From Promethearchaeota archaeon (GTDB taxonomy: Archaea > Asgardarchaeota > Lokiarchaeia > Sigyniarchaeales > SOKP01), in NCBI GenBank assembly GCA_030599585.1, contig JAUVNS010000016.1:1-64000 (forward strand): a stretch of DNA of 64,000 bases. The letters run 5' to 3'. Under the pieces are notes generated by a model. That model was given only the letters and a program-made list of their open reading frames with translations. It did no database searches and was not told the DNA's origin. The translations under genes were made by a program, and so were the position numbers. Of the stretch, positions 8,626 through 62,871 are shown piece by piece; position 1 is the first letter of the stretch, and each line of letters begins with the position of its first letter.

Positions 8626-8717
8626 AAGAGTTTTGAAAGAAGGGATTATAACTAAAATTATCTCTTACAAGGTAAGCCTACGAATATTTAAAGAAAAAAT
8701 TAGCCTCTACGAAAAAA

Positions 8718-9455
8718 CTAAAACCAAGAGTCAAGAGTTTTATTTTTGATAGGCGGTCTCATCCCACGTTTTGGTTTCTTGGGTAGAAGTTTTTTTATTT
8801 GTTTCTCAGGCATTGAAGGGTGTTGGAGCAACGTATAACTTACCATTCTTTCAGTTTGTTCCATTAATACCAGCGCGTGTCCAAAGTGATACAGCGAATT
8901 ACCTCCAACAGGCTTAATTTTAGAGTAAGTATTACGAGGGGCAGTAATAACAATTAAAGGTTTTGACTTTTCCATTACTTTTTTAATCCCGTTGATCGCT
9001 CGGTTTAGTTCTTCGAAAGAGTGCTGCTCGTAATTGGGCCACATGGAAGTTATTCCCGAGATAAGGAGTACTTCTATGTTCTCAAGGTTAGTAATCTTAT
9101 TTTCTAGTATTTCTATCATCTGGTCGTAAATGAAAGCTCGGGAGATGAGAATGTGTTCGAGGACTCTGGTAGGCGACATTTTCCTGCTTATCGCAAGTTT
9201 ACTGATGTGATACGGGTTAAACCGGTTGTTTCCGTCGATAAAAGCTACGAATTTGTTGAAATTTCGATCAACGAACGTTGAAACTGCAGTCGTTACTAAA
9301 ACCCTAGACGTTAACTTCTTATCCCCGATTAGAAGATAAATCGTATCCTTCTGGAAGCCACCTTCGAGGAGGTCGTCTAATATAGCGTCCCCGCTTGGTA
9401 TAAGGGGTTGTCCCTTTTTGCGTTCGTGTTCGTCAAATCCGGAATTATACATCAC
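8718..9455 (-). CDS. Inactivated RecA/RadA-fold protein (ImuA-like)
   Basis: SGDAILDDLLEGG, FIDGNNRFNPY and ISRAF are RadA-like; Walker A degenerate (GDKKLTS). Confidence 0.8.
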   Translation of the reverse strand: MMYNSGFDEHERKKGQPLIPSGDAILDDLLEGGFQKDTIYLLIGDKKLTSRVLVTTAVSTFVDRNFNKFVAFIDGNNRFNPYHISKLAISRKMSPTRVLEHILISRAFIYDQMIEILENKITNLENIEVLLISGITSMWPNYEQHSFEELNRAINGIKKVMEKSKPLIVITAPRNTYSKIKPVGGNSLYHFGHALVLMEQTERMVSYTLLQHPSMPEKQIKKLLPKKPKRGMRPPIKNKTLDSWF

Positions 9456-9550
9456 AATGATAAAATACTTATCAATTATAAAAAATCAAACGGGCAGGAA
9501 ATTTCTAAGTTACTTTTCATGTTTAGAAAATTAGAAAAACATTAAAAGTC

Positions 9551-9844
9551 TTACTCCCATAATCCAGCCCGTAGCGTAACGTAAATTTTTTTGTTAAACA
9601 GTTCTATTTCCGTATCTTCGTAAGCCTTCTGAAAAGAAAACGTTGAGATAATATTGTTAGCAAACACCTTCCTTGCGGTATTAAGGACTTTCGCGTAATA
9701 AACTTCTTTTTTACTGTCGTTTTGCTCGTAGCTGACGAAAGAGGCGAATGCTAGTGCGTTAACTTTTTTAACGTTGGAATTGAGGTTAAACCATCCGTGT
9801 TTATCTTTTTCTACTGGATATATTTGGTCATTAAATTTTTTCAT
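9551..9844 (-). CDS. Hypothetical protein
   Basis: 97-aa ORF, ATG start. Confidence 0.55.
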   Translation of the reverse strand: MKKFNDQIYPVEKDKHGWFNLNSNVKKVNALAFASFVSYEQNDSKKEVYYAKVLNTARKVFANNIISTFSFQKAYEDTEIELFNKKIYVTLRAGLWE

Positions 9845-9911
9845 TAGGACTAGAATTTTATCTTCGTCAGTTAGGGGGAAAAATCTGTGCCAATTTCTAA
9901 AATATTTCGCT

Positions 9912-10262
9912 TCAATTAACGAGTTGTCCTGCGATAACGCAGATATCGATCATTTTTTCCTTTTCTTTATTCCTTCCCATGTCAACCGTAGTGGCGTACT
10001 TTCCTTTCGATTTCGTATAAATGAAATAGCAAAATTCTTTCACTAGGAATTTTTCCATTTTTCCAGTCAATTGAATGTAGGCAATTCTCTTTCTATTATC
10101 CTTGAGATATTCTAAAAAATCCTTAAAATTTGTCTGTAAATCAAACATATAATATTGATGAGCGTTATTGTATTTAAAAATTACTTCTACCACCTGATAA
10201 TCTAAAAATTGATTTAACCACAACTTTTTCTTTAAATAAAGACGCGAAGTTGTATGTAACAA
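9912..10262 (-). CDS. Hypothetical protein (AT-rich, CpG-poor)
   Basis: 116-aa ORF, start uncertain. Confidence 0.4.
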   Translation of the reverse strand: MLHTTSRLYLKKKLWLNQFLDYQVVEVIFKYNNAHQYYMFDLQTNFKDFLEYLKDNRKRIAYIQLTGKMEKFLVKEFCYFIYTKSKGKYATTVDMGRNKEKEKMIDICVIAGQLVN

Positions 10263-10440
10263 AACTAAAGGTTGTGATAATAATTAGCTACCCTGAAAGT
10301 GTGTCCCAAATAAACGATCCAAGGACTCCTTCTCGAAATAAAGTCAGATTTCTCTCAGACGATACTATACCGTTCGGTTGTCTTGACCCCGAAAATTGGG
10401 ACGATATGGTTTTGGTCTATTCAAAACGGAGGTTTAAAAA

Positions 10441-13890: not shown

Positions 13891-15588
13891 TTACTTAGTA
13901 TTAATTTTTTCAATAATGTCGAACCGTTGAGCCGACACGCCAATTCTTTGCGCTTTTCGAGCTTTACGATTTTGCCTGCGTTCTTCCATTACGTAATCGA
14001 TGACGTATCTCGCAGCCCCACCAATCGTAAATCCCGCGTTTCGATCTGTTTCTTGAATTCGTCGTATTAACTCTACGACTTTCTGATTGGGTATAGGGCG
14101 CTTAAAAGAGTAGGGAATTTCGGATAATTCGGCTTCGATGTTTTTGATTTGATCGCGATTTCGTCTTGTTATAATCTTGCACCCCCAAGGTTTTGTGGCA
14201 GATTCTATTTTTTCTTTGTAATCGAACGAACTCGGTACAAGATACATAGGTGCAGGACGAAATTGTATGGGAAGCGGAACTTGTTTCCCGTTTTCGGTTA
14301 TACGCTTTTGATTAGAATAGTGTTTTATTGTATTTATAACGCTTTCGCAATTGTTTAACTCGGTGTTAAGGTTGCTAAATCCGACTACTAGCATTGCAAT
14401 CACGTTCACTCCTGCTTGAGTTAAGTTCTCGATAGTTTCCATGTTTTGATGTACGCTCGTTCCTTTGTTCATTTCTTTTAAGTCCTCGTCTGAAAAAGCC
14501 TCAAATCCCACCCAAGCGTCTTCAAATCCCGCTAATTTAGCCTTTATGGCAAGTTTTGGAGTGATATTTGCTCTGAAATGCGTACCAAATTTAATGTTAA
14601 GATTTTTATCTATCAAGGCGTCGCATAACTGCTCGAAATAGTCTAAATCGTCGTTTATGAGCGATTCCCCAAACAGCATAAATCCAGGGTTGTTTTTTTT
14701 TACGATTGTCTCGATATCTTGAACTACTTTCTCAACAGAACGTGTCCTAAAGCGCGGTCCAAATAGTTTCCATTCTGCACAGAACTTACACCTATTCGTA
14801 CACCCGCGCGATCGGTAAGTTGAGGCAATGTTAAAATAAGTATCTAATGGAATGTCGGTGTAGTCAGGGGTAGGCAACGAATCTAAATCGAGTTGCACTC
14901 CTGGTGAATAACAAATTTTTTTGTTAGCCTTGAAATCAAGACTTATCACGCCTTTTATTTTCGAAAAATCTTTCCCTTGAGATATCTCAAGTAGCGGTTG
15001 TTCGCCTTCACCAATTACTAACCCATCACAAACTCTTTTACTGAGAAACATCTTAAATGTTTCAAACGATTGAGTAATAGAAGGTCCACCCCACACAATT
15101 TTACAATCGGGATTATTTAGTTTTAAAAAACAAGATGTTACGACCGTTTCGGGTATGTTAAGATAGTTAATCGAGAAGGCCACCGTTGAAAAAGATTTTA
15201 GAGTTTCAAAAACGGTTGTCTTACAATATTCAATCGTCGCTCGGAACCGCGTGTGAGTCGCTTCTTGGGTGTCGAACATTCTGTTAGCGTAATCGAGCAT
15301 TAAATCGGGATAAAAACCTTCCGAAAGGTTGGGAATTTTTCCTTCCAATATATCGTTAGCGATAGGGAGTAAGAGCGGAAAATCTTGGTGGTTCATAACG
15401 AAATCAGTAAGGTTTAGTTGAATTAAAGGATCAAAAACCGCTTTCGGCAATTTATATTCTGTTGTCCTAAAGTTAAACACTTTTACTGGGATTGAGTTTT
15501 GCTTAAGATACCCCTGCAAACAAGCTAAACCAAGGGGAATGAGCCTATCGTTGATGCACGATACTTTTACTAACGCAATTTTTGTCAT
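13891..15588 (-). CDS. Cobalamin-binding radical SAM protein
   Basis: PLGLACL and WGGPS (B12-binding domain); SRGCTNRCKFC (CxxxCxxC). Confidence 0.9.
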   Translation of the reverse strand: MTKIALVKVSCINDRLIPLGLACLQGYLKQNSIPVKVFNFRTTEYKLPKAVFDPLIQLNLTDFVMNHQDFPLLLPIANDILEGKIPNLSEGFYPDLMLDYANRMFDTQEATHTRFRATIEYCKTTVFETLKSFSTVAFSINYLNIPETVVTSCFLKLNNPDCKIVWGGPSITQSFETFKMFLSKRVCDGLVIGEGEQPLLEISQGKDFSKIKGVISLDFKANKKICYSPGVQLDLDSLPTPDYTDIPLDTYFNIASTYRSRGCTNRCKFCAEWKLFGPRFRTRSVEKVVQDIETIVKKNNPGFMLFGESLINDDLDYFEQLCDALIDKNLNIKFGTHFRANITPKLAIKAKLAGFEDAWVGFEAFSDEDLKEMNKGTSVHQNMETIENLTQAGVNVIAMLVVGFSNLNTELNNCESVINTIKHYSNQKRITENGKQVPLPIQFRPAPMYLVPSSFDYKEKIESATKPWGCKIITRRNRDQIKNIEAELSEIPYSFKRPIPNQKVVELIRRIQETDRNAGFTIGGAARYVIDYVMEERRQNRKARKAQRIGVSAQRFDIIEKINTK

Positions 15589-15657
15589 AATATTCTTTTT
15601 CTCTTTATTATTGATGTTTTACAACGAATATAACCGAGTATATAAAAAGAAAAAAAA

Positions 15658-17112
15658 TTATTTCGCATTGAGAGAATAGATTTTTAAAAGCTCAAGTCGT
15701 ACATTTTCTGCTGCTTCCACGATTTCCGAGCTGGTCATGTGTTCCGTAGAGTGTGAACCGTATTCAAACTTACCCCAGTTGCCTAAATCTTGGTCTCCGA
15801 TGGCAAATTTGCTTTGGATGTTCAAGCCCCACTTTTCGGGATAATTGTAGTAATCAGAACCGGGATATATCTGCAAAACGCGAATGTCAGAACCGTCCAT
15901 ACCCGCTTTCGTGAGGTCACATACAACTTTTTTGGTCTGTTTTACGGTTTCTTTGCTCTCGCCCGGTAGACCTATTATCCACGAGCTAGCACATATTAAA
16001 TCTTGTTTTTTAGCGTTATCTAGAGCTTTGAACATATTTTTGGTGTGTTGCCGACCTCCATCGACATCTTTTCCCCTTAAATTTTTTAATATCTCTTGAG
16101 ATCCAGACTCACCTCCTAAAAAAAGGAACACCGGATTAAGTTTATTCATCAAACGGGCGTCTTCCTCTGAAAATTGGTCTGCCCTCGTTTGTAGAATAGT
16201 GCGTAAGGAAAGCTTTTCTTTTTCGTACATCTCGACAAAGTCTTGAAACCGTTTCTTGTGTAAAGTAAAGGTAGAGTCGGTAAAGAGAATTACTTCACAA
16301 CCGTGTTCTTCAAACGTTTTTAATTCTTTTTCTACGTTCTTCATCGGTTTATAATCTACTTCTAAACCCCAATACTTAGAATGTAAGCAATATGGGCAAT
16401 TAAAAGGGCACCCTCTAGCGGTCTGCACGTTACCAAATCGATTGCTTTTCATGTACTCGTCGATATTTAAGCCTTCTAAATCAGAAGGGGGCAATTTAGA
16501 TAAGTCTGGTTTAACTGCAAAGTGAGGAGATATGTGTACGCTTCCGTTGTTTTTATAGCAAAATCCTTGTATGTTTCTGTAGTTGCTCTCTGTAGGATCC
16601 ATTGCGTACTGTTTTGATGCAATTTCTCCTGGACCTCTGATCAAATAATCAATTTCAGGGTTGAAAAGAAAAAATTCGGGATACATAGATGGAAGTACTC
16701 CTCCCACCATAATATGCGTACTGTTATTAATTTTTTTTATGATTTTTGCAAACCTCAACACTTCAACAACTGCAGGTGGAGACCCAACCGATAACCACAC
16801 GGAATCGTAATCAAAAGACGATATACGCTTCTCGATCTCTTTCTCAGTTAAGTACCTACTAATCTCGTCTAAAAGGAACGGAACGTGGTGGGTTGAAATT
16901 CCTTCTTCTTTCAACACCGAAGATAGTTGCGCTAACCCTAAAGGAACTGAATGAAGAGCCGGTAACGCGATTTTGTGTTTCTTGTAAATTAACTTTACCA
17001 AATGTGCGTATATTGAGTTAGTACTTTTGGAATTGACGGAATCTTGCGACTTCGTTGTAACCTTATTCGGAGTATTATACGGTTCTAGCAACAAAACACT
17101 TTTTAAATGCAT
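15658..17112 (-). CDS. Cobalamin-binding radical SAM protein
   Basis: PLGLAQL, VGG, GPGE; TARGCPFNCPYC; GGESGS; IIGLPGE. Confidence 0.9.
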   Translation of the reverse strand: MHLKSVLLLEPYNTPNKVTTKSQDSVNSKSTNSIYAHLVKLIYKKHKIALPALHSVPLGLAQLSSVLKEEGISTHHVPFLLDEISRYLTEKEIEKRISSFDYDSVWLSVGSPPAVVEVLRFAKIIKKINNSTHIMVGGVLPSMYPEFFLFNPEIDYLIRGPGEIASKQYAMDPTESNYRNIQGFCYKNNGSVHISPHFAVKPDLSKLPPSDLEGLNIDEYMKSNRFGNVQTARGCPFNCPYCLHSKYWGLEVDYKPMKNVEKELKTFEEHGCEVILFTDSTFTLHKKRFQDFVEMYEKEKLSLRTILQTRADQFSEEDARLMNKLNPVFLFLGGESGSQEILKNLRGKDVDGGRQHTKNMFKALDNAKKQDLICASSWIIGLPGESKETVKQTKKVVCDLTKAGMDGSDIRVLQIYPGSDYYNYPEKWGLNIQSKFAIGDQDLGNWGKFEYGSHSTEHMTSSEIVEAAENVRLELLKIYSLNAK

Positions 17113-17204
17113 AGTGTTGCTTAAAAACGACCTTTGTATATAAAGGAAAAATTAAGTCTTAATGAAAACATGTAAAAAAACTCAGCCAGCTAATACGCTT
17201 CTTC

Positions 17205-17450
17205 TCATAAGAGAAACCGACTTGCGTTCATTAAAATCTCGCAGTCGCAATGTCCCCCGTTTTCTTTGCATAATTCCAAAATTTTTTCTTGATCGGTCGG
17301 GGGGATTCCCATTGAGGCAAGTATTTTCCTCGCGTATGGAAACTCCGAACCTCCACACTTCCATTCGTTTCCACCAAATTTGCATTGACCCTCTAAAGCG
17401 TAGAGAAATACGTTTAATTGCAACTGGGTGAGTGGGAATCCTTCCATCAT
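17205..17450 (-). CDS. DUF2695-like small protein
   Basis: C-terminal ENGGHCDCEILMN motif. Confidence 0.75.
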   Translation of the reverse strand: MMEGFPLTQLQLNVFLYALEGQCKFGGNEWKCGGSEFPYARKILASMGIPPTDQEKILELCKENGGHCDCEILMNASRFLL

Positions 17451-17486
17451 GCGAGATCAAATATCTTATTTTATTTAAAGAAAAAG

Positions 17487-20736: not shown

Positions 20737-20900
20737 TTGTTTTCACTAAATTAATATTTACCTTATAAGATACTAAGTCTATTTAAAGGAAAATTTGTGC
20801 GATTTTTGCCAAAAATCGTTAGTTCTATTCTAAAGTAGGATAGCTCGTATGAAAAAATAGGAAATTTGGGGATAAAAAATTTAGATATACGTCAAACCAC

Positions 20901-23514: not shown

Positions 23515-23850
23515 ATATTTTCACCTATTTATTTTATTTTTTTCACTGATAACTACATATTTTGTGATGCAGAGCACAATTCACCAGACTATTTAAAGAA
23601 CAAAGAGAAAAAAAAGGAATAATAAACTATACAATTATAAGTCAAAAATTAAACGAGAACGATGAAATTTGAGAAGTATATTTATTTATTGCTTGGGGAT
23701 TATCTAAGGAAAGAAATTTACGCCCACTATTTTAGATTTATTTTTTGCATTTTTTCTTACAATCGACTTTTTTTCCTTTATATATCTTCTTGAAGTGAAC
23801 GCTGTAACACAATAGAATCTCAACAGAAATTGAAACAGATGAAAAAATAA

Positions 23851-29843: not shown

Positions 29844-29849
29844 TTTTTT

Positions 29850-31500: not shown

Positions 31501-31513
31501 TTTATAAAGAAAA
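31501..31513 (-). promoter_or_regulatory. Pyrimidine-BRE promoter of the VirB4/HerA-like operon
   Basis: Minus strand TTTTCTTTATAAA, ~50 nt upstream of ATG 31450. Confidence 0.55.
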
Positions 31514-31528
31514 AAAGAAGAAAAAAAA

Positions 31529-33884: not shown

Positions 33885-33898
33885 TATTTAAAGGAAAA
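33885..33898 (-). promoter_or_regulatory. Pyrimidine-BRE promoter of the HhH membrane protein gene
   Basis: Minus strand TTTTCCTTTAAATA, 29 nt from the ATG. Confidence 0.7.
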
Positions 33899-35503: not shown

Positions 35504-35517
35504 TTTTCCTTTATATT
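35504..35517 (+). promoter_or_regulatory. Pyrimidine-BRE promoter of hel308
   Basis: TTTTCCTTTATATT in a divergent intergenic region. Confidence 0.65.
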
Positions 35518-39142: not shown

Positions 39143-39288
39143 ATTCGTGTCTCCCTAAGTTACCCTATTTTGGTATTATATCGATAATAAAAGGCTTGTT
39201 ATTTAAACTTCCCTAGCGGATATATCTGTTCGATCTATCGTTCCCAAAATTTTTCCTTTTTAACCGTTTACACGTTATTACCTTTATA

Positions 39289-39573: not shown

Positions 39574-39641
39574 AGGCGGTTATTTTCTTTTATATACTTC
39601 TACCAATTATTTGCTGCAAAAATCAATAAGAAGCGATAATA

Positions 39642-43197: not shown

Positions 43198-43277
43198 TAC
43201 AAGGTACATTTGTCGTAAGAATAAAAAGGAAAAATTGTGAAATGGATAAAAAAATAAAAAAAAAAAGAAAATATGAT

Positions 43278-47809: not shown

Positions 47810-49084
47810 TCAACAAACCGATGGTGGACCGGTTGGGTTGTGATATCTCCATAGTTCGACTTTCACGCCCTCCTCATCCATATTACCTTTTTTGTTAGAT
47901 AAAGAAACGTCTTGAAAGTTCGTTGAATTATCGTTATTTTGATTTTTGGCAACTGAGGCTACTAAATATCCACTTACGTCTTTTACAACGAGGTAATATT
48001 CTTCGCTCTCGTTTAAGTTGTTAAACACTTGACTTGCGTCCCCTAAGATTATTTGAACTATGTCGTCGCACTGTTCCTCGCCTTCCGAAATCTCGCCAAG
48101 GTCTGTAAACGCAGGATCGAGCACGCCTAATTTGTTCATAACTCTTTTTAATAAATCAGCCGATTTTACGAGACTTACAAAACCCGGAACGTTAAGCCTT
48201 TGGATAACCCTTTTCTCGACTTGCCTGTGAATCGTTGACATTTTAACGCCTAAACGCTCGCAGATTGCGCTAACGCTCACTTCTTTTTTCTGAGAGCAGA
48301 GAAGCGTAATTGAAGTCACTAAACCCACTACCACGTCGTCCTTAGTATTTTTTATAACATCGTAAAACCTGTCAAGTATTCGTTTCGATTGGTAGTAGAA
48401 CGACATCCCCAAATTGAAGTGCTCGCTGACCTCTAAAATTCTTTCTTTTATGTATTGCTTGCGATCCCGCTCTTGATATTCGGGCCAAATGCGTATAATC
48501 GAAAATTTAAACGAGTTAAAATCGTTCTTGGAAACCTTGGACACCCCCAAAAGTTCTTTCTCGCTGATCGGTTTACCGTTCTCTTTGTAGTACGCGTAAA
48601 TAACGCAAGGCACAAGCATTTCAGCGCTTCTATATTTCGTTCCTTTTTCTAAACTCGCTCGAAATTGCTTGACCTTGCGAACAATTACCTCTACATCGCC
48701 TGAGGAGAAACCTAACGCGGTTAAAATTCGTTTTGCTTCTACTTTTACCGCAATATTAAAAGTTTCTTCGGTAGGTCGGGAAGCGTCTATCTTGCTTAAC
48801 CCTTCTAATTTAGCGGAACGTTGCATTCTTCTTCTTTCAGACCTAAATCCGATTTGGGTTTTTCCTAATACGGCGTACTGAACGATGTCTGCGTCGTACG
48901 GTCGGTGATATTCTAATTTTTGTATTTCTAATACTATTCCACACGCTCGACAAGTGTAACCTTCCCGGGTTTCTATCACGTCGGTAGAATTACACACGTC
49001 GCATTGATATTGCGACTCGAGACCTGAGACAATTTTTAACGATTTTATTTTATCAGCACTATGAGGCGTTGCCATTTTTTTCAA
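47810..49084 (-). CDS. Divergent transcription initiation factor IIB (TFB) paralog
   Basis: Zinc ribbon CDVC...TCRACGIVL; cyclin repeats (KGTKYRSAEMLVPCVIYAY); C-terminal HTH VSAICERLGVKMSTIHRQV; start could be ATG 49075. Confidence 0.85.
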   Translation of the reverse strand: MKKMATPHSADKIKSLKIVSGLESQYQCDVCNSTDVIETREGYTCRACGIVLEIQKLEYHRPYDADIVQYAVLGKTQIGFRSERRRMQRSAKLEGLSKIDASRPTEETFNIAVKVEAKRILTALGFSSGDVEVIVRKVKQFRASLEKGTKYRSAEMLVPCVIYAYYKENGKPISEKELLGVSKVSKNDFNSFKFSIIRIWPEYQERDRKQYIKERILEVSEHFNLGMSFYYQSKRILDRFYDVIKNTKDDVVVGLVTSITLLCSQKKEVSVSAICERLGVKMSTIHRQVEKRVIQRLNVPGFVSLVKSADLLKRVMNKLGVLDPAFTDLGEISEGEEQCDDIVQIILGDASQVFNNLNESEEYYLVVKDVSGYLVASVAKNQNNDNSTNFQDVSLSNKKGNMDEEGVKVELWRYHNPTGPPSVC

Positions 49085-49181: not shown

Positions 49182-49615
49182 TTGCTAAAAAAATTTCACA
49201 AAAGGTGGAGTTTATAAACATAAAATGAAATTTTTACAAAACTATAAGATACTAAACATTGTTCACTACAGATTTGTAAAAAAAAATTGTGACGTGATCG
49301 CCTCCACGATCTGAATCCGAGAGAAGCTCGGTTGGACTGAGTCAGTCAAAATAAGGGTAAGTTTCTCAACCGAATTTTTCTTAAAATCAATATTTTTCTT
49401 GTTTGGTTATGCGATAAAAAGATACACTTTTTGATCAAAGTTCGTTTGTGAAACTTTTTTACTTTTTATTGCACTTTGATCTCTTTTTTTGAAATGATCT
49501 TTTTAAATCCCACGGATTTTTCCAAAAAATTTTTTACAATTTTTTTTCCTCCTGAAATTTTTTTTTAGATTAATTTTTTCTTTATATGCTTCCTTTGCGT
49601 GACCTAATTATAATC

Positions 49616-50380: not shown

Positions 50381-50386
50381 TAAAAT

Positions 50387-50731: not shown

Positions 50732-50733
50732 AA

Positions 50734-51484: not shown

Positions 51485-51498
51485 TTTTCCTTTAAATA
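51485..51498 (+). promoter_or_regulatory. Pyrimidine-BRE promoter
   Basis: TTTTCCTTTAAATA, 22 nt before ATG 51520 (leaderless spacing). Confidence 0.7.
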
Positions 51499-52315: not shown

Positions 52316-52328
52316 TTTTCTTTAAATA
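52316..52328 (+). promoter_or_regulatory. Pyrimidine-BRE promoter of radA
   Basis: TTTTCTTTAAATA, 35 nt before the ATG (T-run may double as the upstream terminator). Confidence 0.55.
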
Positions 52329-52363
52329 AAATCGTTTGTATACAAGTTTAATTCAAATTACAC

Positions 52364-53657
52364 ATGAGAGATGATAACAAAAAAATTATGTCAGACTTAG
52401 ACCAAGTAAAATCGATCAACGCCCGACAGATCAAACTCCTTCAAGAAAGCGGGATTAGCACGGCTGAAGCGCTTGCAATGTCCCCACACAACATCATATC
52501 AGAGATCGACGGATTAGGCGGTAAAACGGCGAAAAAATTAATTTGGAACGCGAGAAACGCCCTTGGAATGACAGAATTCACGACTGCTTACGATATCGAC
52601 GAGAATACGGAGTATATTACCACCGGTTCTTCTGAACTAAACAGGATTTTAGGCGGTGGGTTCCAAACGGGTAAACTTACCGAAGTATACGGTCCTTTCA
52701 AAAGCGGGAAGACGAATTTGGCCCATACCATTGCGGTAACCATCCAACTTCCAAAGAAAAAAGGAGGTTTGAACTCGGCTGTTGCTTACATTGACACGGA
52801 AAACACGTTTGCTAAGGAAAAAATCAAAAGAATCGCCAAGAGATTTGGACTCGATCCAAAAAAAGTACTGTCCCAAATATTTCACGCCAGAATATATTCT
52901 TCAGACCACCAGATGCAAATGATTCAGAAGGCAGAAACCCTATGCAAGACGAGGAACGTGCGACTTATCGTGGTAGATAGCTTAATGGCTTTAATGAGAG
53001 TTGAATACATAGGAATTGGAATGCTCGCTCGTCGTCAAGGAGTTCTCAACAACATGATACACGGGCTTTCTCGAATTGCAGAGACTTACAATTGCGCTAT
53101 TTTACTTACCAATCAAGTATCGACCAAAATGATGGGTATGTTTTCAGGAAACGACGCCATAGGGGGAAATAGTGACGAGATATTTCGTCAGTCACTTCTA
53201 AATAGTAGCCCATGGTTGCCACTTCCGTGTCATGTTTAAAACAAAAGGATTTTCAGCAAATAACTCTTTGAAGCGAAGAGCAGTGATAGTAGACGCGCCC
53301 GACTTACCACCAGACGAAGCTGAGTTCTATATTACAGCCGTAGGTATTGCTGACACAGAAAAAGGAGAAGTTCCGGAAGCGAAAGGGTTGGACTTCGAAG
53401 TAGAAGCGTTGTACGAGGAAGAGCAAGTTGTAGAAGAAGTGTCTATTGAAGAAAGTACCGATTCAGGAGAGTATTCATTAATAGACGTAAAAGGGATAGG
53501 AGCCGGAATGGCAAAAAACCTCATTAAAAACGGAGTTACTTCGGTTGACGCCTTGATTGAATCCGATCCCGAACAACTTGCCTCCAAAATTAGCGGTATC
53601 TCCTCTAAAATGATAAATGATTGGCAAACAAACGCGATTGCTCTTATAAACGCCTAA
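52364..53657 (+). CDS. radA: RadA recombinase with extra C-terminal HhH domain; join(52364..53170,53202..53657), 420 aa
   Basis: N-terminal HhH, ITTGS, GPFKSGKT, YIDTENTF, LIVVDSL, LARRQ, TNQV; removing 53171-53201 gives DAIGGN|IVAHGCHFRVMFK...DAPDLP and fuses the two ORF-track ORFs. Confidence 0.92.
53171..53201 (+). other. 31-nt putative bulge-helix-bulge/loop (EndA-type) mRNA intron in radA
   Basis: AGTGACGAGATATTTCGTCAGTCACTTCTAA; central helix GGAA/UUCU, bulge AU^A, inner stem GUGAC/GUCAC, 3' cut AA^A; the predicted cuts equal the frame-restoring deletion. Confidence 0.75.
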
Positions 53658-55002: not shown

Positions 55003-55290
55003 TTACTGAACGATTACTTGGTTCCCAGTTTGTTTCTGAGCGTTCGCTTCGTATTTTCGAATAAACCACGCTGGTTGGAAGCGGTATATGTAAAGGTTAA
55101 TAGAGCCCACTATGCTCCCCGCGATCACCAAGAATAACGAAAGCAACCCAAGGTTCAAAAAATTAAACGTGAACGCGAAAAAAGCTCCAATGGCAGCGAC
55201 AAAGCTAACTATTCCCCAAACTAAGTTAAGTTTTACCACGCTTTCTTTTGAAATAACTATTTTTTCTACTTGGTCTAAAATTATCACCAA
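55003..55290 (-). CDS. Small two-TM protein
   Basis: Hydrophobic hairpin; minus-strand TTTTCTTTTTAAA at 55310-55322. Confidence 0.65.
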   Translation of the reverse strand: MVIILDQVEKIVISKESVVKLNLVWGIVSFVAAIGAFFAFTFNFLNLGLLSLFLVIAGSIVGSINLYIYRFQPAWFIRKYEANAQKQTGNQVIVQ

Positions 55291-55494
55291 ACATTAGACT
55301 TCAGCCATGTTTAAAAAGAAAAAAGATTAAAAAAAAACTTGGAGAAGAGGTATAACTAATGCTAAGAAGTTTTTAACCGCATTTTTCTTTATTTTTCCTC
55401 CTATTTTTATTTTATAATCAGGTGAGAATTTATCTGTAGTATTCACCTTACACGATTATAACTTTATAAAGAACAAATAAAAAAAAATAAAAAT

Positions 55495-56529
55495 TTAAGG
55501 GGGTGGCAAACTGACCGAGTCTTTTCTACGCCTGAGCACTCCAAAGACTATTAAAACACATATTAACGCCCCAGAAGCGATTCCAAATCCTAGTGTCCAC
55601 TCCATCGGCATGTAGAAATATCCGCTTACCGTTTCGTTTTTTGGTGGCTCGGGCTCTGGCTCAGTTCCGTTGTTTACGGTACTAATCTGATAATCTTCTG
55701 CTATGGCGTATGCAACGTTTACCACCTCAACTTGACAACGAATTCGAATTTTTACCGTGTATATTCCTTCTATAGCGGTTCCGAAATCGAAACGCAACAC
55801 CGTTCCCACGCTTCCCATGGTTTCGTTTTGGTAGATCGTAAATTCAATCTCGCCGGGATCAGTCACGTCGTAATCTACCCTCACTTCGTTGTCAACGGTT
55901 AGCCCACCAATAGCAGAAACTCGTCCGATGTAGAACTTGTAGGACGTATCGGTTTTAAACGCTGTGTTATGCTCGACCACCATCTCGTTGGTGAACTTGT
56001 TTACTTGGTAGAGTTTCAATCGTTCCAAAAATTTGGGGGCTATTATGTCGTATAAACACTTATCTTCTGTATCGAACGATATTTTTACGTGTAAGTTCAA
56101 GTTAAGCTCACATTCAACTGAAATAATAAAGCTGTAATTGCCCTCAATCGCAGTTCCGAACGGAATTTCGAACCAATCGTCGCCTTGAGAAATGTTCACT
56201 TCCGTCTTAAACACTTCGTATACATCTAAAACCGGATCGATAATAGTGACGTTGATTTCGCTATTGTGAGGGGTTACGATCTCAAGTAAGATGTAATAAT
56301 TAATTTTTTCAAACAAGTAAAAGTCGTCGAATCGCAAAGTATCGAAAGGCGCCAAAAAGGTAAACACTTTATCTACTAGATTTTCTTCGGAACTCGTCTT
56401 TAAGTTGTTAGTTTGTTGATCTATATTTCCTAAGCCGGTGCGAGGATAAGTAGACAACGTTCCAAAAACGATTAAGCAGATAACGAGCGCAATAATTATT
56501 AATGGTTTTCTACGAGAGTTAATAACCAT
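55495..56529 (-). CDS. Surface protein with two repeated beta-rich domains and a C-terminal TM
   Basis: Signal sequence; internal repeat FGTAIEGNY / FGTAIEGIY; EPEPEPP linker; TM followed by RRRK. Confidence 0.8.
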   Translation of the reverse strand: MVINSRRKPLIIIALVICLIVFGTLSTYPRTGLGNIDQQTNNLKTSSEENLVDKVFTFLAPFDTLRFDDFYLFEKINYYILLEIVTPHNSEINVTIIDPVLDVYEVFKTEVNISQGDDWFEIPFGTAIEGNYSFIISVECELNLNLHVKISFDTEDKCLYDIIAPKFLERLKLYQVNKFTNEMVVEHNTAFKTDTSYKFYIGRVSAIGGLTVDNEVRVDYDVTDPGEIEFTIYQNETMGSVGTVLRFDFGTAIEGIYTVKIRIRCQVEVVNVAYAIAEDYQISTVNNGTEPEPEPPKNETVSGYFYMPMEWTLGFGIASGALICVLIVFGVLRRRKDSVSLPPP

Positions 56530-56836
56530 ACACCTGCAATTCTTTGAATTCAGAAACGAGAATCTTAACGTTTGAACACCTATCGAAATCGATACAAGTA
56601 AAGCACGGTTGGTCCGACCAAAAATACGCCGGCTGATTTGTCCTCTCCACGATTAAAAGCGGAAACTTACCTTTTGGGCATTCTAACGCAGAATTGCTAA
56701 TCGTCCCCCTCTTTGGAAGCGGATAGGAAGTCCCACACGCATCGCACTTTACGAACCGTTTGTAATTTTTTGTTTTGTACATCATCAAAGAGCATTGACA
56801 GGACGGACAAGTACCTATTTCTTGAATCTGTCTCAT
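56519..56836 (-). CDS. Topoisomerase-I-type C4 zinc-ribbon protein
   Basis: IGTCPSC...RFVKC..C..SYPLP...CPKG. Confidence 0.8.
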   Translation of the reverse strand: MRQIQEIGTCPSCQCSLMMYKTKNYKRFVKCDACGTSYPLPKRGTISNSALECPKGKFPLLIVERTNQPAYFWSDQPCFTCIDFDRCSNVKILVSEFKELQVYGY

Positions 56837-57276
56837 AAAATTTCATACACCTAAAATATACTTTTACCTAGTTGCACGCGTATTTACTTATAAAGAAAAA
56901 AATAAACGGTCGACAAAAATCAGAAATTAGGGAATTTTTTTTGAAGGGTTGGGATTTACTTCCTGACCTTTCTTTTTTTTTTTTTATTTATATTGAGAAT
57001 TGAAATGAAAAAAATTCTGACTATTTCTAAACCTCTTTTAACTTAAAAATTACTAAAACCTTTAAATTACTGTCGGAGGTACCACTAATATTAAAAACCT
57101 TATAATTGGGGTTTTCTTCCTTAAATTCCTTTATTTTTCTGTTTACTTTTTTTATAGTAACTTTTATTATTTTATATTCTTCTTTATCCATACTATTTTC
57201 TTCTTATTTTTTTTATTTAAAAGTAACGAAAATGGTAGGATTGTATTATGAGCTTAGAGAATGACGAGATGTAAAG

Positions 57277-57658: not shown

Positions 57659-57672
57659 TTTTCCTTTAAATA
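57659..57672 (+). promoter_or_regulatory. Pyrimidine-BRE promoter
   Basis: TTTTCCTTTAAATA. Confidence 0.65.
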
Positions 57673-57817: not shown

Positions 57818-57973
57818 CTATTGCTTTTAGCACGTATTAGGTCGATTAAGGTCACCGTGAGTAATATATATTTTTTCCTTGGAATATAAAATCTAAAATT
57901 TTATTTTTACATCTAATTGTATTTACTTTTCATATTTTTCTTTTAAATACTCGCAACTTCTATGGCGTATATA

Positions 57974-58198
57974 ATGGTAATGTTCGATTATTTTGAAGAA
58001 TTACTAGGTGGCGTCGAGTTTTTAATAGCCTTCGGCTCGCTTATAGGCATATTAGGAATCTTAATTGGTTTAATTTTTGCCATCTGGGGCGGAAGCAGGC
58101 TTCGCTACAAAATGGTTGGAGTCATAGTTTTCTCTTTTATTTTAGTAGCAGTATGCGGGTTCGACACTGGCTTCAAATACTTCAGGATTTTTAGGTAG
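57974..58198 (+). CDS. Small two-helix hydrophobic protein, VirB2/CedA1 pilin-like topology
   Basis: Gly-rich TM1, short basic turn (SRLRYK), TM2; TTTTCTTTTAAATA at 57936-57949 favours start 57974 over 57962. Confidence 0.7.
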   Translation: MVMFDYFEELLGGVEFLIAFGSLIGILGILIGLIFAIWGGSRLRYKMVGVIVFSFILVAVCGFDTGFKYFRIFR

Positions 58199-58353: not shown

Positions 58354-58725
58354 TTAATAAAAGTGGTATCCTTGAGGCGGGGGGTTGCCTCCTATCATAA
58401 ATCCTAATATGTCGAAGGAAACTCCGGTAAGAAACGCGCCGATCCACAGCAACAAAACGCCATACAATATAGTTTTTACGCTAAACCTTTTAAAAAAGAT
58501 TTTAAGAAACCCGATTACTAACACCGCCCCTCCGATAGTAAGGCATATCTCTCCTACGCTCACGAAAACAGTTTTAAAAAGCGATCCTACCATATAACGT
58601 AAGTTTGACCCGAAGAAAGGGACGACTATAGCTATGAACCCCAATATTCCTGCAAAAACTAGAAAGATACGGTTTGGCTTGCGCTGTTTGCGAAGGATGA
58701 AAATGTCGTTTTTATTTCTAGCCAT
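58354..58725 (-). CDS. Small multi-TM membrane protein
   Basis: Three hydrophobic segments; minus-strand TTTTTCTTTAAAAA at 58772-58785. Confidence 0.75.
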   Translation of the reverse strand: MARNKNDIFILRKQRKPNRIFLVFAGILGFIAIVVPFFGSNLRYMVGSLFKTVFVSVGEICLTIGGAVLVIGFLKIFFKRFSVKTILYGVLLLWIGAFLTGVSFDILGFMIGGNPPPQGYHFY

Positions 58726-58908
58726 CGATTGTTTGCTCGGTATGATTTTTACCTTACTTACAGGTCGAATCTTTTTAAAGAAAAAGTTTACAGTATTAGG
58801 AATAGCTAGTTTTGTGGCGATAGTGCTGACCGTAAGCGGAATAGTTTTTAGACCGTTTTTCTAATTATAAACTTCTTTTTTTTCAATTTTTTTCGAAGTT
58901 CAATTACC

Positions 58909-60222: not shown

Positions 60223-60236
60223 TTTTCCTTTTTATA
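60223..60236 (+). promoter_or_regulatory. Pyrimidine-BRE promoter of the fen-like gene
   Basis: TTTTCCTTTTTATA, 22 nt before the ATG, in a divergent intergenic region. Confidence 0.7.
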
Positions 60237-60257: not shown

Positions 60258-61355
60258 ATGGGAGTTAAACTTCAAGACTTAGTAACCCGAAACGCGATCG
60301 AATTTTCCAAGCTCGCAGGCAAGATTATAGCGATAGACGCCCCGAACATTATTATGAGCTTGTTTAATTTCGCTCGTAAAAACTCAGACGGTTCAAGAGC
60401 GGGACTCATTCTCGACCGCACCCAAAGACCTATATCTCACTTATATGGTTTACTCTACAGGACGAATTTTTTCCTTTCTAAAAAGATTTTTCCAATTTTC
60501 TGTTTCGACGGGCTCGATTCCGACCTCAAAAAACTTAAGACGAAGGACAGACTCAACGATTTCTTGTTTACGGAAAAATTATTCCGATCTTTACTACAAT
60601 CGGGAAACAAGCAAAACGCGAGACAAATTGCAATGTCGAAAGAATACATGTGGCCTAACATCGTTAAAGAATCAAAGCAACTTTTAGGAGCGTTGGGCGT
60701 CCCGTGTATTAATTCACCAGCATCAGCGGAATCGCAATGCGCTCAACTCGTCAAAGATAAAGTAGCTCATTATTCTAACTCGCAAGATTTCGATTCGCTG
60801 TTGTTCGGCTGTCCAAGAACGATACAAAACTTCTCAAAGTCGCGTAAGAGAAAAGTTCACGGTCGATGGACCTATCAAAAAATCGCTCCGGTTCAAATAA
60901 ATCTCAAGGAGAGCCTAAAAAAATTAAATGTAAACCAATTTCAGTTGGTAGACATGGCAATTCTCATCGGGAACGACTATTTTAAGGGTATAAAAAATAT
61001 TGGACCGAAACACGCGCACAAATTCCTTCTCAAACATAAAAGTTTAGAAATGGTTATTCAGCAGGAAAAAAACGCGTACGATTTTTCCTTACTCACCTCA
61101 AGTATTATCTCAAAAGTGAGAAAAATTTTTTTGTTGCCTGAAGTAATAAATCGCTACCAAGACATTAGGTGGAACTATCCGAACGAACAAAAAACACTTT
61201 TTTTACTGTGCGAAGATCACCACCTCAACTTGGAAAGAGTGCAAAAAAATCTGGACAAGTTTTCTACAAATTTTGAAAAGTGTCAAAAATATTTCGACGC
61301 TCACAAAAACAACCGTAGAACGGTTCAAAACACTTTACAAAAAGTAATTTCCTAA
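60258..61355 (+). CDS. fen: Flap endonuclease 1 (FEN1/XPG family), divergent
   Basis: MGV.L, AIDA.N, SHLYGLLYR, FDG, SQDFDSLLFG, LIGNDY..GI..IGPK; SPASAESQ in place of APSEGEAQ. Confidence 0.9.
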   Translation: MGVKLQDLVTRNAIEFSKLAGKIIAIDAPNIIMSLFNFARKNSDGSRAGLILDRTQRPISHLYGLLYRTNFFLSKKIFPIFCFDGLDSDLKKLKTKDRLNDFLFTEKLFRSLLQSGNKQNARQIAMSKEYMWPNIVKESKQLLGALGVPCINSPASAESQCAQLVKDKVAHYSNSQDFDSLLFGCPRTIQNFSKSRKRKVHGRWTYQKIAPVQINLKESLKKLNVNQFQLVDMAILIGNDYFKGIKNIGPKHAHKFLLKHKSLEMVIQQEKNAYDFSLLTSSIISKVRKIFLLPEVINRYQDIRWNYPNEQKTLFLLCEDHHLNLERVQKNLDKFSTNFEKCQKYFDAHKNNRRTVQNTLQKVIS

Positions 61356-61402
61356 CCTTATATCAAGACGCAAAAAAATACTCAAAAAAGAAAAAACAAT
61401 TA

Positions 61403-61999
61403 TTATTTTAGATTAAATTTTACTTGTTCTCTATATTTTTCCTTACCAATGTATATTGCATAATGAGGAACTTTGAGTATTTTGAATTTATGGTTCAAGT
61501 TTCTTTTTAGAATATTATATGAATCGTTACCAAACGCGATTAGAGTTGGATTATTAGCACCTATATCAGCCAATTCTTGTAAAAAGTTTTCAACGTTTTC
61601 TTCCTCAAATTGTGTGTTGTTCTTTAAATATGAAATAACCTTACCAGATATTTTTTGTTCGAAGTCTTTTATAATATCTGTCATATAACCGCCCCAATAA
61701 GGCGTCCCTCTAAATGCAAATCTAATTTTGAAATCATTTGACCCTGGTCGTTTATCGTGAAAGTTTGCTAAGGGAACTTTAATACTCCTTGAAATGTTTA
61801 AACCAACTAGAACAACGTTAGGTTTAAGTTGTGAAAGTAAATTTTTATTAATATCGGGGTCTAAAATAGTTAGGTCGCCAGTATTGCTTTTCGGTTTATT
61901 ACCTTCTTCCGCCCATATTGCCCAACTTCCAACATTACCATATTTTTCCTTTATGAAATCATATTTTTTTCTGGTAAATGTTCCATCTAATTCTTCCAC
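61403..61999 (-). CDS. Uracil-DNA-glycosylase-superfamily-like protein (CpG-poor)
   Basis: SWAIW, VLVGLN, YMTDIIK, LIAFG, VPHYA. Confidence 0.65.
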   Translation of the reverse strand: MEELDGTFTRKKYDFIKEKYGNVGSWAIWAEEGNKPKSNTGDLTILDPDINKNLLSQLKPNVVLVGLNISRSIKVPLANFHDKRPGSNDFKIRFAFRGTPYWGGYMTDIIKDFEQKISGKVISYLKNNTQFEEENVENFLQELADIGANNPTLIAFGNDSYNILKRNLNHKFKILKVPHYAIYIGKEKYREQVKFNLK

Positions 62000-62221
62000 T
62001 TTCTCTCGTCTCCTTTATAAAAATCAAACTGGTTAATTAATTATAGTACGCAAAAGATAAATTAGAAATTAAATTTACCCTAATTTTTTTTGATCCTCTG
62101 CTAACCTTGCTTCCTACCAATTTCTCTTTTTTATTTATAAATAACGGTAGTCTAAACTATGCATTTAGTAAATATTTTAATTTAAACATAAATTTTTTAA
62201 AAAAAAACTGTTGAGCAAGGC

Positions 62222-62839
62222 ATGCCAGGATCAGCGGACGATTCGATCGTCCTCCAAAACCACTTAGGAGCGTATAGAAGCGCTTCTGGAAGCAACGTAA
62301 ACAAAGCACAAGTGCTTAATTTTTTTTTTAGGTTCGAAAGCTTTGCAAACGACAACAACGAATACAGAGATTTAAGCCCTTTGTTCGTTGGAACCATAGT
62401 AAAGGATACGGATTTACCCGATTCAGTCGTATTGCGCACTGCTTTAGGGTTCATTTCAGAAGCGTCTAAATTTAGCCAATTGTTAAGCTTAGGACTCGTA
62501 TCGTGGGGTTCGGGCGAAAAAAGTAAATTGAGACAAGCAAGGTTCTACTTGCGGAGGGCGTATAATATAGCCCCGGTGTTCAATTATGCTCGAGCGATCG
62601 TTAACTTAGGAATACTGCACAAAATCTTGAAAAAACATTTTTATTGGCCTCGCATCACCACTCAGCTTGCTTTAACAATTTTTGTCACTGACAGGAACGA
62701 CCCAACTATAGAGAAAAATGAGTATATTTTGCAAAAAAACTTAAGAGCTTTTTGCGCGTGCTCCGCTTACGCGTTTCACATGGCTCGAAAAAAGTTAAAC
62801 ATCAACAAAATGGGACGCGTGACTCCTAACCCGTTTTAA
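62222..62839 (+). CDS. Hypothetical protein with a possible TFB-like cyclin-fold/HTH C-terminus
   Basis: TQLALTIFVT...ILQKNLRAFCACSAYAFHMARKKL resembles the spacing of the TFB second repeat (inference). Confidence 0.6.
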   Translation: MPGSADDSIVLQNHLGAYRSASGSNVNKAQVLNFFFRFESFANDNNEYRDLSPLFVGTIVKDTDLPDSVVLRTALGFISEASKFSQLLSLGLVSWGSGEKSKLRQARFYLRRAYNIAPVFNYARAIVNLGILHKILKKHFYWPRITTQLALTIFVTDRNDPTIEKNEYILQKNLRAFCACSAYAFHMARKKLNINKMGRVTPNPF

Positions 62840-62857
62840 TATTTTTTTCAATAGGAT

Positions 62858-62871
62858 TTTTCCTTTAAATA
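62858..62871 (+). promoter_or_regulatory. Pyrimidine-BRE promoter of rpa
   Basis: TTTTCCTTTAAATA, 50 nt before the GTG. Confidence 0.7.

Follow-up and report, generated by a model that had tools for sequence, protein, structure and literature searches.

Archaeal regulation through multiple TFBs has often been likened to the use of sigma factors in bacteria. In Sulfolobus, TFB2 belongs to the cell-division wave of expression and TFB3 to the response to DNA damage. To our knowledge, clear pairs of a TFB paralogue and a visibly different promoter element are scarce. TFB2- and TFB1-responsive promoters of Sulfolobus have near-identical TATA boxes and similar BREs and differ in spacing alone (bioRxiv 10.64898/2026.09.06.749720); thus TFB paralogues need not differ in BRE sequence. 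TFB3 has no DNA-binding domain (PMC5817253). In the DNA-damage promoters of Sulfolobales, the hexanucleotide A(N)TTTC is essential for UV inducibility (PMC5817253; PMC6061795) and is found at positions -44 to -39, ahead of a weak BRE that is distinct from it (PMC5817253). Together with Orc1-2 this motif controls repair and DNA-transfer genes, and it is needed besides the TATA box.

The DNA analysed here, referred to as the window, is a stretch of 64,000 nucleotides from a Promethearchaeota archaeon (contig C12 of the assembly). The original prediction held that some 20 of its genes are preceded by a pyrimidine element in the BRE position and form a regulon of an alternative TFB.

An element enriched in one genomic island

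All 22 sites listed in the original prediction were found at their places and on the expected strands, each with the sequence TTTAWATA. Their division into TTTTCC and TTTTCT variants did not survive, however, since the supposed TTTTCT copies read as TTTTTC followed by the T's of the TATA box itself. The sites represent a single motif, T4-6-(C/T)-C, abutting the consensus TATA box TTTAWATA. T makes up 72-80% of positions -6 to -3; either T or C is found at position -2, and C predominates at position -1. The 14-mer TTTTC[CT]TTTWWAWW occurs 12 times in the 64-kb window, against 1.0-1.6 occurrences expected from Markov models (orders 1-5) fitted to the window sequence. The refined motif, TTTTYCTTTWWAWW, has 19 matches in the window where about 2 are predicted from its density in the non-island part of the assembly.

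Rather than being the general promoter of the organism, the motif marks a syntenic island of about 45-55 kb conserved across the genus. A scan of the whole 4.85-Mb assembly gave an intergenic density of 12.1 matches per 10 kb in the island copies (63 in 52 kb) versus 0.87 per 10 kb in the rest (59 in 680 kb), a 14-fold difference. Good matches outside the island precede unrelated genes, such as those for an MFS transporter, an aspartokinase and a shikimate kinase; many of the outside matches may be due to chance. When the analysis was anchored on TATA boxes located 20-24 nt before a start codon, TTTYC was found to abut the box in 31 of 75 island cases versus 6 of 318 elsewhere. Conversely, hexamers with at least five purines at -6 to -1 were present in 4 of 75 island cases versus 46 of 318. 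The island element thus lacks the purine-rich character of the BRE in archaeal core promoters. Other genes in the window had been credited with an ordinary purine-rich BRE; this was borne out for 8154 (AAAAAAC+TTTAAATA), 13327 (GAAAAC+TTTATTAA) and 39142 (GGGAAG+TTTAAATA), while 49084 and 60114 are not clear-cut.

The assembly contains three versions of the island: C12, C49 with others (about 90% protein identity) and C20 (about 70%). This multiplicity, an estimated contamination of 8.9% and the GC content of the window (36.6% versus 32.6% for the assembly, a compositional extreme among the contigs) might indicate that the window derives from a co-binned organism, a mobile element or a virus whose general promoters are of this type. 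We find this hardly credible. On the 411-kb contig C20, a 60-kb syntenic stretch holds 10 of 13 strict and 17 of 32 relaxed matches, few being found in the flanks (about 350 kb) of the same contig, which largely refutes the artefact. Furthermore, genes of the window that do not belong to the island have different promoters, large chromosomal contigs of many congeneric genomes carry the island in synteny, and no relative of its divergent TFB (TFBp, see below) was found on the viral contigs searched.

Genes and predicted transcripts behind the element

Recombination and repair functions are prominent among the putative targets. On the forward strand, the element precedes the genes for a Hel308-type helicase (site 35504..35517, gene 35582-38122), the island RadA paralogue (52316..52329, gene 52364-53239), a second FEN1 copy (60223..60236, 21 nt from the ATG of 60258-61355) and an RPA-like OB-fold protein (62858..62871, gene 62921-63844). 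It also precedes a three-gene operon (49576..49589, operon 49586-51438) that ends with the gene for a RadB/KaiC-like ATPase and whose promoter is kept in 6 of 7 orthologues. On the reverse strand, the site at 43220..43233, kept in 5 of 5 orthologues, lies 22 nt ahead of the first ATG of an operon comprising 42622-43209, a Hef-like helicase gene (40429-42606) and a Zn-ribbon protein gene (39901-40425). The repair and recombination set is completed by a second XPD.

The set extends well beyond repair, to radical-SAM enzymes, a ThiF-like protein, small GTPases, membrane operons and many unassigned genes; a VirB4/HerA-like membrane operon and small hydrophobic proteins are also among its members. 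Reverse-strand sites are found before two radical-SAM/B12 genes, at 15639..15652 (gene 13891-15588) and at 17137..17150 (TTTTCCTTTATATA, 24 nt from the ATG of 15658-17112, a leaderless spacing), as well as before a four-gene membrane operon (31501..31514, operon 25123-31450; kept in C49, C20, G002 and G014) and the gene for an HhH membrane protein (33885..33898, TTTTCCTTTAAATA, gene 32069-33856). The ThiF-family gene (23851-24675) is preceded by a forward site at 23771..23784, and a small hydrophobic protein gene (57962-58198) by one at 57936..57949. The site at 56888..56901 (reverse), kept in 7 of 7 orthologues, serves an operon formed by a Zn-ribbon gene (56519-56836) and gene 55495-56529; several small, highly conserved Zn-ribbon proteins are encoded in the island.

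The remaining reverse sites precede a 114-aa gene (8685..8698, TTTTTC+TTTAAATA, 59 nt from 8281-8625), small ORFs at 17205-17450 (17472..17485, 21 nt from the ATG) and 55003-55290 (55310..55323), a 390-aa gene (20780..20793, gene 19564-20736) and a 123-aa gene (58772..58785, gene 58354-58725). The first of these sites lies just downstream from a RadB-like gene (8718-9455). The remaining forward sites precede a 94-aa gene (39251..39263, TTTTTCC+TTTTTAA, 24 nt from the ATG of 39289-39573; kept in C49, C20, G002 and G014), a small gene at 39642-39893 (39583..39596, a variant), a 124-aa gene (51485..51498, TTTTCCTTTAAATA, 21 nt from the ATG of 51520-51894; kept in 7 of 7 orthologues) and, as the putative target of 57659..57672 (TTTTCCTTTAAATA), a short ORF downstream. 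To these can be added sites absent from the earlier list: a TTGTTC variant before 22270-23514 (TTTGTTC+TTTAAATA, reverse strand, approximately 23590..23604), whose C49 orthologue has TTTTCC; G variants before 54925 and 38186; and five more sites just beyond the window (C12:65181-76693).

Spacing and orientation were counted over nine island versions pooled. As predicted, the sites point toward start codons: 123 of 132 matches (93%) are intergenic, and 114 of these have a correctly oriented ORF start within 150 nt. The distances between the end of the 8-bp AT-rich TATA box and the start codon fall into two classes, one sharply peaked at 20-23 nt and the other spread broadly over 40-67 nt. Judging from these positions, about one third of the predicted transcripts, those of the 20-23 nt subset, would be leaderless. 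Forty-seven of the 123 intergenic sites lie between divergent genes, so that terminators of upstream genes do not explain the motif, as the original prediction had argued from fewer copies. An oligo-T intrinsic terminator was discarded on account of these divergent sites and because neither a conserved C nor a fixed boundary with a TATA box is typical of terminators.

The motif is kept at 65 of 97 orthologous promoters, over a range of protein identity of 30-95%. In control comparisons it was found at 16 of 91 orthologous promoters where C12 is without it and in 16 of 320 cases on the antisense strand. Conservation at orthologous positions extends to at least seven other island versions, and the C before the TATA box persists among orthologues whose flanking sequences have completely diverged. 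The idea that the motif might be equally common before housekeeping genes found no support: it was absent from the promoters of the thermosome, TBP, canonical TFB and RadA-1 genes, and repair-enzyme paralogues differ in the same manner. In congeneric genomes the second FEN1 gene has a T-run, a C and a TATA box 21 nt before the ATG, a leaderless distance, whereas the universal FEN1 gene has GGAAAA+TATATA and a leader. Likewise, the motif is kept before the second XPD gene in genomes G000 and G004 while the common XPD gene is without it. Taken together, these results identify a genuine gene-set-specific promoter class, a conclusion in which our confidence is high. That promoter type separates the second copies of FEN1, RadA and XPD from the housekeeping copies suggests that the cell uses the duplicates in a programme of their own, for example upon DNA damage, during DNA uptake or in a phase of the cell cycle. 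The second FEN1 may be the counterpart of the eukaryote-related Fen1-2 described in a recent study.

Does such a class require a dedicated factor? The element could be a strong-consensus variant that the ordinary TBP and TFBs recognise, uniform because the promoters share an ancestor, were duplicated or are under selection for insulation; the T-run would in addition halt read-through from upstream. The TATA box is indeed identical in both promoter classes, and the general promoters of this genome are so degenerate that the requirements of its housekeeping TFBs cannot be read from them. Some promoters were clearly duplicated along with the N-terminus of the gene (C12:67714, 68932 and 74164). 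In addition, 76 of the 123 sites lie downstream from a co-directional gene, and archaeal polymerases terminate at oligo-T. Yet 47 of these sites lie between divergent genes and a terminator would not need the conserved C; the island enrichment, the absence from housekeeping genes and housekeeping paralogues and the scarcity of purine-rich BREs inside the island also speak against ordinary factors. We regard this explanation as improbable.

A divergent TFB as candidate reader

The best-supported reading of the sequence data is an alternative-TFB regulon, in which the T-run ending in (C/T)C would take the BRE position in place of the purine-rich sequence, creating a dedicated core promoter class. 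The assembly encodes ten canonical TFBs and three TBPs. A further member of the TFB/TFIIB family lies within the island (47810..49084, reverse strand). This divergent paralogue of 424 aa, named TFBp, has a Zn ribbon, two cyclin repeats and a C-terminal extension of about 100 aa. The ribbon cysteines (C28, C31, C45 and C48, a CxxC...CxxC arrangement) are invariant in 22 homologues and align to the TFB ribbon; Pfam returned a weak Zn_Ribbon_TF match (E 0.00097) and no match to its TFIIB cyclin-repeat model. Comparison of the TFBp family with the ten canonical TFBs by hhalign gave a probability of 96% (E 2.7e-9) for an alignment of 260 columns that starts in the Zn ribbon and reaches the recognition helix. 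The cyclin repeats were recovered by hhalign, AlphaFold (residues 105-320 helical, pLDDT about 80) and Foldseek, whose top matches were TFIIB, Brf and Pyrococcus TFB (1d3u_B, target-normalised TM-score 0.64). The B-reader/linker region is conserved in sequence and modelled with low confidence; the C-terminal 100 residues are poorly modelled.

In the TFIIB recognition helix, a Val and an Arg contact the BRE. All ten canonical TFBs share this helix, TEVT(L/V)R (TEVTLRSRY), while TFBp has KMSTIHRQV, in which Ser replaces the Val and His the Arg; throughout its family the helix is conserved as MSTIH/Q. Because the canonical TFBs have a single recognition helix among them, the "TFB paralogue" of the original prediction narrows to 47810-49084. 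At a threshold of E<=1e-20, TFBp is present in 22 of 24 genomes of the genus and in 0 of 16 outside it, in synteny with the island. Its own promoter is without the motif, as are those of its 7 orthologues (0/7).

We put the probability that TFBp reads the element at about 45%. We infer that TFBp binds TBP and the element and that the island genes are co-regulated. In the proposed mechanism, TFBp would bind beside TBP through its rewired helix and recruit RNA polymerase, so that class-2 promoters would drive co-expression of the island genes plus a few unlinked ones; expressed from an ordinary promoter, TFBp would act as a switch for the set. The original prediction of an alternative-TFB regulon is partly supported, by the promoter class and by the presence in the island of a divergent TFB with a changed helix; the putative regulon is not purely one of DNA repair.

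A serious rival, to which we give a lower probability, is a dedicated regulator acting with a canonical TFB. A separate sequence-specific activator or repressor would bind the T-run and C beside the TATA box, an ordinary TFB would initiate, and TFBp would have some other role. The recognition helices are intact in all ten canonical TFBs, and the island's small Zn-ribbon and unassigned proteins include some that could bind DNA, though no candidate was identified. The element is non-palindromic, T-rich and ends in TTTC, like A(N)TTTC of the UV-inducible Sulfolobus promoters (PMC5817253; PMC6061795), and in its recombination proteins, VirB4/HerA-like membrane operon and small hydrophobic proteins the gene set overlaps in theme with the Sulfolobales DNA-damage set. 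A Sulfolobales-type A(N)TTTC/Orc1-2 promoter was rejected on position: at -44 to -39, that motif precedes a BRE distinct from it (PMC5817253), whereas the TTTYC element abuts the TATA box. Occupying the BRE position, a bound regulator would compete sterically with TFB. A co-located and co-restricted TFBp with a changed helix provides a simpler fit.

Comparison of lineages hints that helix and motif co-vary, the cases representing two or three related lineages, not independent events. Genomes with an MSTIQ helix have retained the C ahead of the TATA box less often (5 of 12 in G015), and no genome-wide excess of the C-containing motif was seen in them. In another genus, a diverged cluster encodes a TFBp-like protein whose helix is ASTVYSH, and a T-run followed by GC and TTTTATAAA precedes two genes. 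T-rich leaderless promoters before the second FEN1 gene were also present in genera with no close TFBp found; therefore the T-run may predate TFBp.

Relation to described promoter systems

The island promoters resemble the canonical BRE/TATA promoter recognised by TBP and TFB in having an 8-bp AT-rich TATA box with a specific 6-bp element directly upstream and a spacing that fits initiation about 22-25 nt past the TATA box and leaderless mRNAs. They differ in the pyrimidine run, TTTTYC, the purine-rich form being found here before the universal FEN1, 8154, 13327 and 39142. With the Sulfolobales DNA-damage promoters they share a non-palindromic T-rich element ending in TTTC ahead of recombination, repair and DNA-transfer genes. 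As in the regulons of the Halobacterium TFB/TBP families and of Sulfolobus TFB2 and TFB3, the proposal is that a TFB paralogue governs a particular set of genes, which, as for TFB3, includes DNA-repair functions. Here the promoter element is clearly different in sequence, and TFBp has a full core with a changed helix and is encoded inside its presumed regulon. The present case brings together an information-rich cis-element, a well-delimited and conserved set of targets and one candidate factor whose DNA-reading helix is altered.

The setting is the archaeal lineage closest to eukaryotes, where diversification of the TFIIB family into promoter-class specialists is a hallmark. Brf1, Brf2 and Rrn7/TAF1B are each dedicated to one promoter class; like them, TFBp has a TFIIB fold, a Zn ribbon, two cyclin repeats and a C-terminal extension. 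The Brf1 and Brf2 complexes are among its Foldseek matches, and some family members bear the JGI label "TFIIIB Brf1 subunit/TFIIB". The C-terminal extension of TFBp, to be compared with the TBP-binding block of Brf1, is poorly modelled, and there is no sign of a different polymerase. We tentatively propose that an Asgard lineage (Promethearchaeia/Lokiarchaeia) divided its TFIIB family between general members and a promoter-class specialist that reads, and co-evolves with, a pyrimidine BRE and switches on second-copy recombination and repair genes. His in the helix would go with TTTTYC, Gln with a relaxed T-run and, in the other genus, Tyr with TTTTGC. If so, this division would be analogous to the eukaryotic split between TFIIB, Brf and Rrn7.

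Form and genomic distribution of the class-2 motif

Every promoter site listed in the original prediction is present in the window. Two variants had been distinguished, TTTTCC and TTTTCT, but aligning the sites on the TATA box merged them into a single motif, the TTTTCT sites corresponding to TTTTTC plus the first T of the box. The motif of these class-2 promoters is a run of four to six T's, a pyrimidine and a C, with TTTAWATA following immediately. The pattern TTTTC[CT]TTTWWAWW matches 12 times in the window versus 1.0-1.6 expected from Markov models (order 1-5) fitted to the window's own sequence, and the refined pattern TTTTYCTTTWWAWW gave 19 window matches versus about two predicted from the density outside the island, a syntenic gene cluster rich in recombination and repair genes. 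Intergenic motif density is 12.1 per 10 kb in the island copies versus 0.87 per 10 kb in the rest of the assembly. The class-2 motif is real, strongly non-random and conserved, and very probably defines a gene-set-specific class of core promoter.

Promoter geometry was analyzed in a pool of nine island versions, of which this assembly contributed three and other congeneric genomes six. Intergenic positions accounted for 123 of 132 motif matches, and in 114 of these 123 an ORF starts no more than 150 nt downstream on the same strand. Start codons follow the end of the TATA box at two preferred distances, one forming a sharp peak at 20-23 nt, the spacing expected for leaderless mRNAs, and the other a broad peak at 40-67 nt. 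Since 47 of the 123 sites lie between divergent genes, upstream U-tract terminators can be ruled out as the source of the T-run, as the original prediction had argued. In a separate check anchored on the TATA box, the box had only to precede a candidate start codon by 20-24 nt, and the upstream element was left free. The island sequences showed 72-80% T at positions -6 to -3 and C in 47% at -1, with no such bias in the rest of the genome. TTTYC abutted the TATA box in 31/75 island cases versus 6/318 elsewhere, and purine-rich hexamers preceded it in 4/75 versus 46/318. The geometry yields putative transcription starts and suggests that the island genes are co-expressed. As for the general promoter of the genome, signals of the A-rich plus TATA type were weak throughout, whether sought by k-mer asymmetry, by EM motif search or upstream of 17 tRNA genes, so that the "standard" class is documented by examples and not by a model.

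The assembly (4.85 Mb, 52 contigs, 32.6% GC) contains syntenic copies of nearly all window genes. One island version, at about 90% protein identity, is spread over contigs C49, C51, C6, C52, C23 and C38; another, at about 70%, occupies 234-295 kb of C20. Three versions of the same roughly 60-90-kb region are thus found in the assembly. Co-binned related populations are the likely cause, since the contamination estimate is 8.9%; the bin probably mixes such populations. The GC content of the window is 36.6%, and together with the contigs of its 90% twin it falls at about 35-38% versus the 32.6% of the assembly. Given this high GC, the window might derive from a co-binned organism or a mobile element that uses the motif as its general promoter. 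This was ruled out by the presence of other promoters at the non-island genes of the window and by the confinement of the motif on C20, a 411-kb contig where 10 of 13 strict and 17 of 32 relaxed matches fall inside the 60-kb syntenic stretch.

The island core (about 23.8-67.7 kb of C12, the contig whose positions 1-64000 are the window) is syntenic in six relatives (G002, G014, G020, G018, G019 and G015), with protein identities of 30-95%, and the motif is kept at the same genes though the upstream regions have otherwise diverged. Across seven other island versions, 65 of the 97 promoters of genes orthologous to motif-bearing C12 genes match a strict pattern. Orthologues of motif-less C12 genes, mostly internal to operons, match in 16 of 91 cases, most of them at three genes with a degenerate C12 copy; the antisense-strand control gave 16/320.

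Class-2 genes and their housekeeping counterparts

Pfam assignments identified, among the motif-bearing genes, a RadA paralogue (52364), a Hel308-type helicase (35582), a Hef-like helicase operon (43209-39901), FEN1 (60258), an RPA-like OB-fold protein (62921), a RadB/KaiC-like ATPase operon (49586-51438) and a HhH membrane protein (32069), all of them named as targets in the original prediction. Two radical-SAM/B12 enzymes and a ThiF-like protein also carry the motif, as do many proteins with no assigned function. The island extends beyond the window, with five more class-2 sites in a stretch that includes a pair of small Arf/Ras-like GTPases. The gene set is rich in recombination and repair genes but not exclusively so, because the radical-SAM, ThiF-like, GTPase-pair and unassigned genes belong to it. 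The promoter and first codons (ATGATAACACCTGA..., giving MI(T/A)PE...) are common to C12:67714, 68932 and 74164 and to window position 51485, suggesting duplication of a module made up of promoter and N-terminus; the proteins of 124 and 126 aa form a small paralogue family. In C12 and C49 the RadA paralogue (52364-53657) appears as two ORFs of 291 and 141 aa, in C20 as a single 382-aa ORF.

The island FEN1 (60258-61355) is a divergent second copy, predicted to be leaderless, the other copy of this assembly being located at C32:121258-122295. Universal FEN1, of roughly 350 aa and 35% identical to the island protein, is present in all genomes of the order and is preceded by a purine BRE (GGAAAA), then TATATA and a leader containing a Shine-Dalgarno-like sequence. 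The island type is also present in 14 of 24 congeneric genomes; in relatives it has the T-run, C and TATA box 21 nt before the ATG. Two FEN1 lineages have been described in Asgard archaea, with the divergent Fen1-2 being related to eukaryotic FEN1 (2025 study, PMC12680538), and the island FEN1 may belong to this eukaryote-related lineage. Likewise, a second XPD gene at C9:338226 and its 88% orthologue in another genome (G004) both keep TTTTTCTTTAAAAA, which the common XPD of 20 genomes lacks. Stronger Rad51-family matches elsewhere in the assembly, on C27 and C24, have upstream regions without the motif, which is likewise missing before the genes for the thermosome, TBP and each of the ten canonical TFBs. 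The motif is not equally common before housekeeping genes, the outcome that would have counted against the original prediction.

Twenty motif matches outside the island were annotated; they precede genes of mixed functions and probably include many chance matches. The plausible cases are limited to those at the second XPD, two mTERF-like genes, a radical-SAM gene and some wHTH genes. A second small cluster with class-2-like promoters lies at C9:326000-340300 (locus L077) and comprises the second XPD helicase, an mTERF-domain protein, a radical-SAM enzyme and an HTH protein, with a PNKP-like gene adjoining. At C15:39898-47475 (locus L078), two class-2-like sites flank a canonical TFB gene (40763-41704), one before a divergent 235-aa gene of no assigned function and the other before a TrmB-like wHTH gene. 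A further RadA paralogue is found 5 kb from this TFB locus.

TFBp, a candidate reader encoded in the island

With ten genes for canonical TFBs and three for TBPs, two of these three in tandem on C9, this assembly has a large repertoire of general transcription factors. The recognition helix TEVT(L/V)R is common to all ten canonical TFBs, which makes it unlikely that one of them has a different DNA specificity. Among the TFB-family proteins here, just one departs from this helix: TFBp, a 424-aa divergent paralogue encoded inside the island at 47810-49084 on the reverse strand. Sequence searches against Pfam, NCBIfam and PDB returned nothing beyond a weak Zn-ribbon match in Pfam. Its homologues, about 296 proteins of around 425 aa, all come from Lokiarchaeota/Promethearchaeota-type MAGs. 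A profile built from 22 of them could be aligned with the ten canonical TFBs (96% probability); the 260 aligned columns extend from the Zn ribbon to the recognition helix. The AlphaFold model of TFBp has a confident helical core (residues 105-320), and the best Foldseek matches are TFIIB, Brf1/2 and Pyrococcus TFB. In TFIIB-DNA structures, Val and Arg of the recognition helix contact the BRE; the corresponding helix of TFBp is KMSTIHRQV, with Ser and His in their place. In the L077 cluster, the N-terminal 200 residues of a 619-aa protein without a Zn ribbon match the cyclin core of TFBp (hhalign 97%).

At a threshold of E<=1e-20, TFBp was recovered from 22 of the 24 congeneric genomes but from none of the 16 belonging to other genera. 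It lies on the same contigs as the second FEN1, at a distance of about 12-15 kb. A scan of viral contigs found no relatives. The class-2 motif is absent upstream of TFBp in 7/7 orthologues. The upstream region (49085-49180) has a conserved block of its own, aaactggtgatcttaattc..., also found in C49, C20, G002 and G014, which may be the regulatory site of TFBp.

Possible helix co-variation, proposed mechanism and known systems

In three genomes (G001, G015 and G006) MSTIQ replaces MSTIH in the TFBp helix, and in G015 the C before the TATA box is kept in 5 of 12 orthologous promoters. In whole-genome counts across 40 relatives, members of the genus with the His-type helix contained the C-containing motif about 1.5 times as often as the reversed-pattern control, an excess that is suggestive, though modest and drawn from genomes that are not independent; no excess was found in Gln-type (MSTIQ), TFBp-less or other-genus genomes. 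A diverged version of the cluster occurs in a complete genome of another genus (G038, C1:1.69-1.76 Mb, loci L117-L119), with Hel308-like, RadA-paralogue, second FEN1, GTPase-pair and VirB4-like genes. The TFBp-like protein of this cluster (hhalign 97.8% to the TFBp family) has the helix ASTVYSH, and two genes are preceded by a T-run, GC and TTTTATAAA. Of seven places in this genome that match the search pattern TTTTTGCTTTWWWAW, four lie within about 62 kb around the cluster. Such comparisons give a weak hint that helix and promoter element co-vary, the lineages being few and related and the events not independent.

The best-supported reading is that class-2 promoters are read by an alternative TFB, the divergent TFBp encoded in the island being the putative reader, and that the genes would constitute the regulon of an alternative general transcription factor. 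We put the probability of this mechanism at slightly under one half. A TFB-family reader is favoured because the class-2 element occupies the BRE position itself. A serious rival is a dedicated regulator bound at the T-run/C element: DNA-damage promoters of Sulfolobales have a similar non-palindromic element, A(N)TTTC, which depends on Orc1-2 (PMC6061795). That element, however, occupies positions -44 to -39 and is followed by a separate BRE (PMC5817253), whereas the class-2 element lies at the BRE position, and this difference speaks against the two being the same element. Literature searches found no description of the class-2 promoter or of TFBp in Asgard archaea. With regard to promoter reading by alternative TFBs, a study of Sulfolobus TFB2 reported that promoters responsive to two TFBs, TFB2 and TFB1, have near-identical TATA boxes and similar BREs (bioRxiv 10.64898/2026.09.06.749720). 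Against that background, a BRE class distinct in sequence, as proposed for the class-2 promoters, would be unusual.
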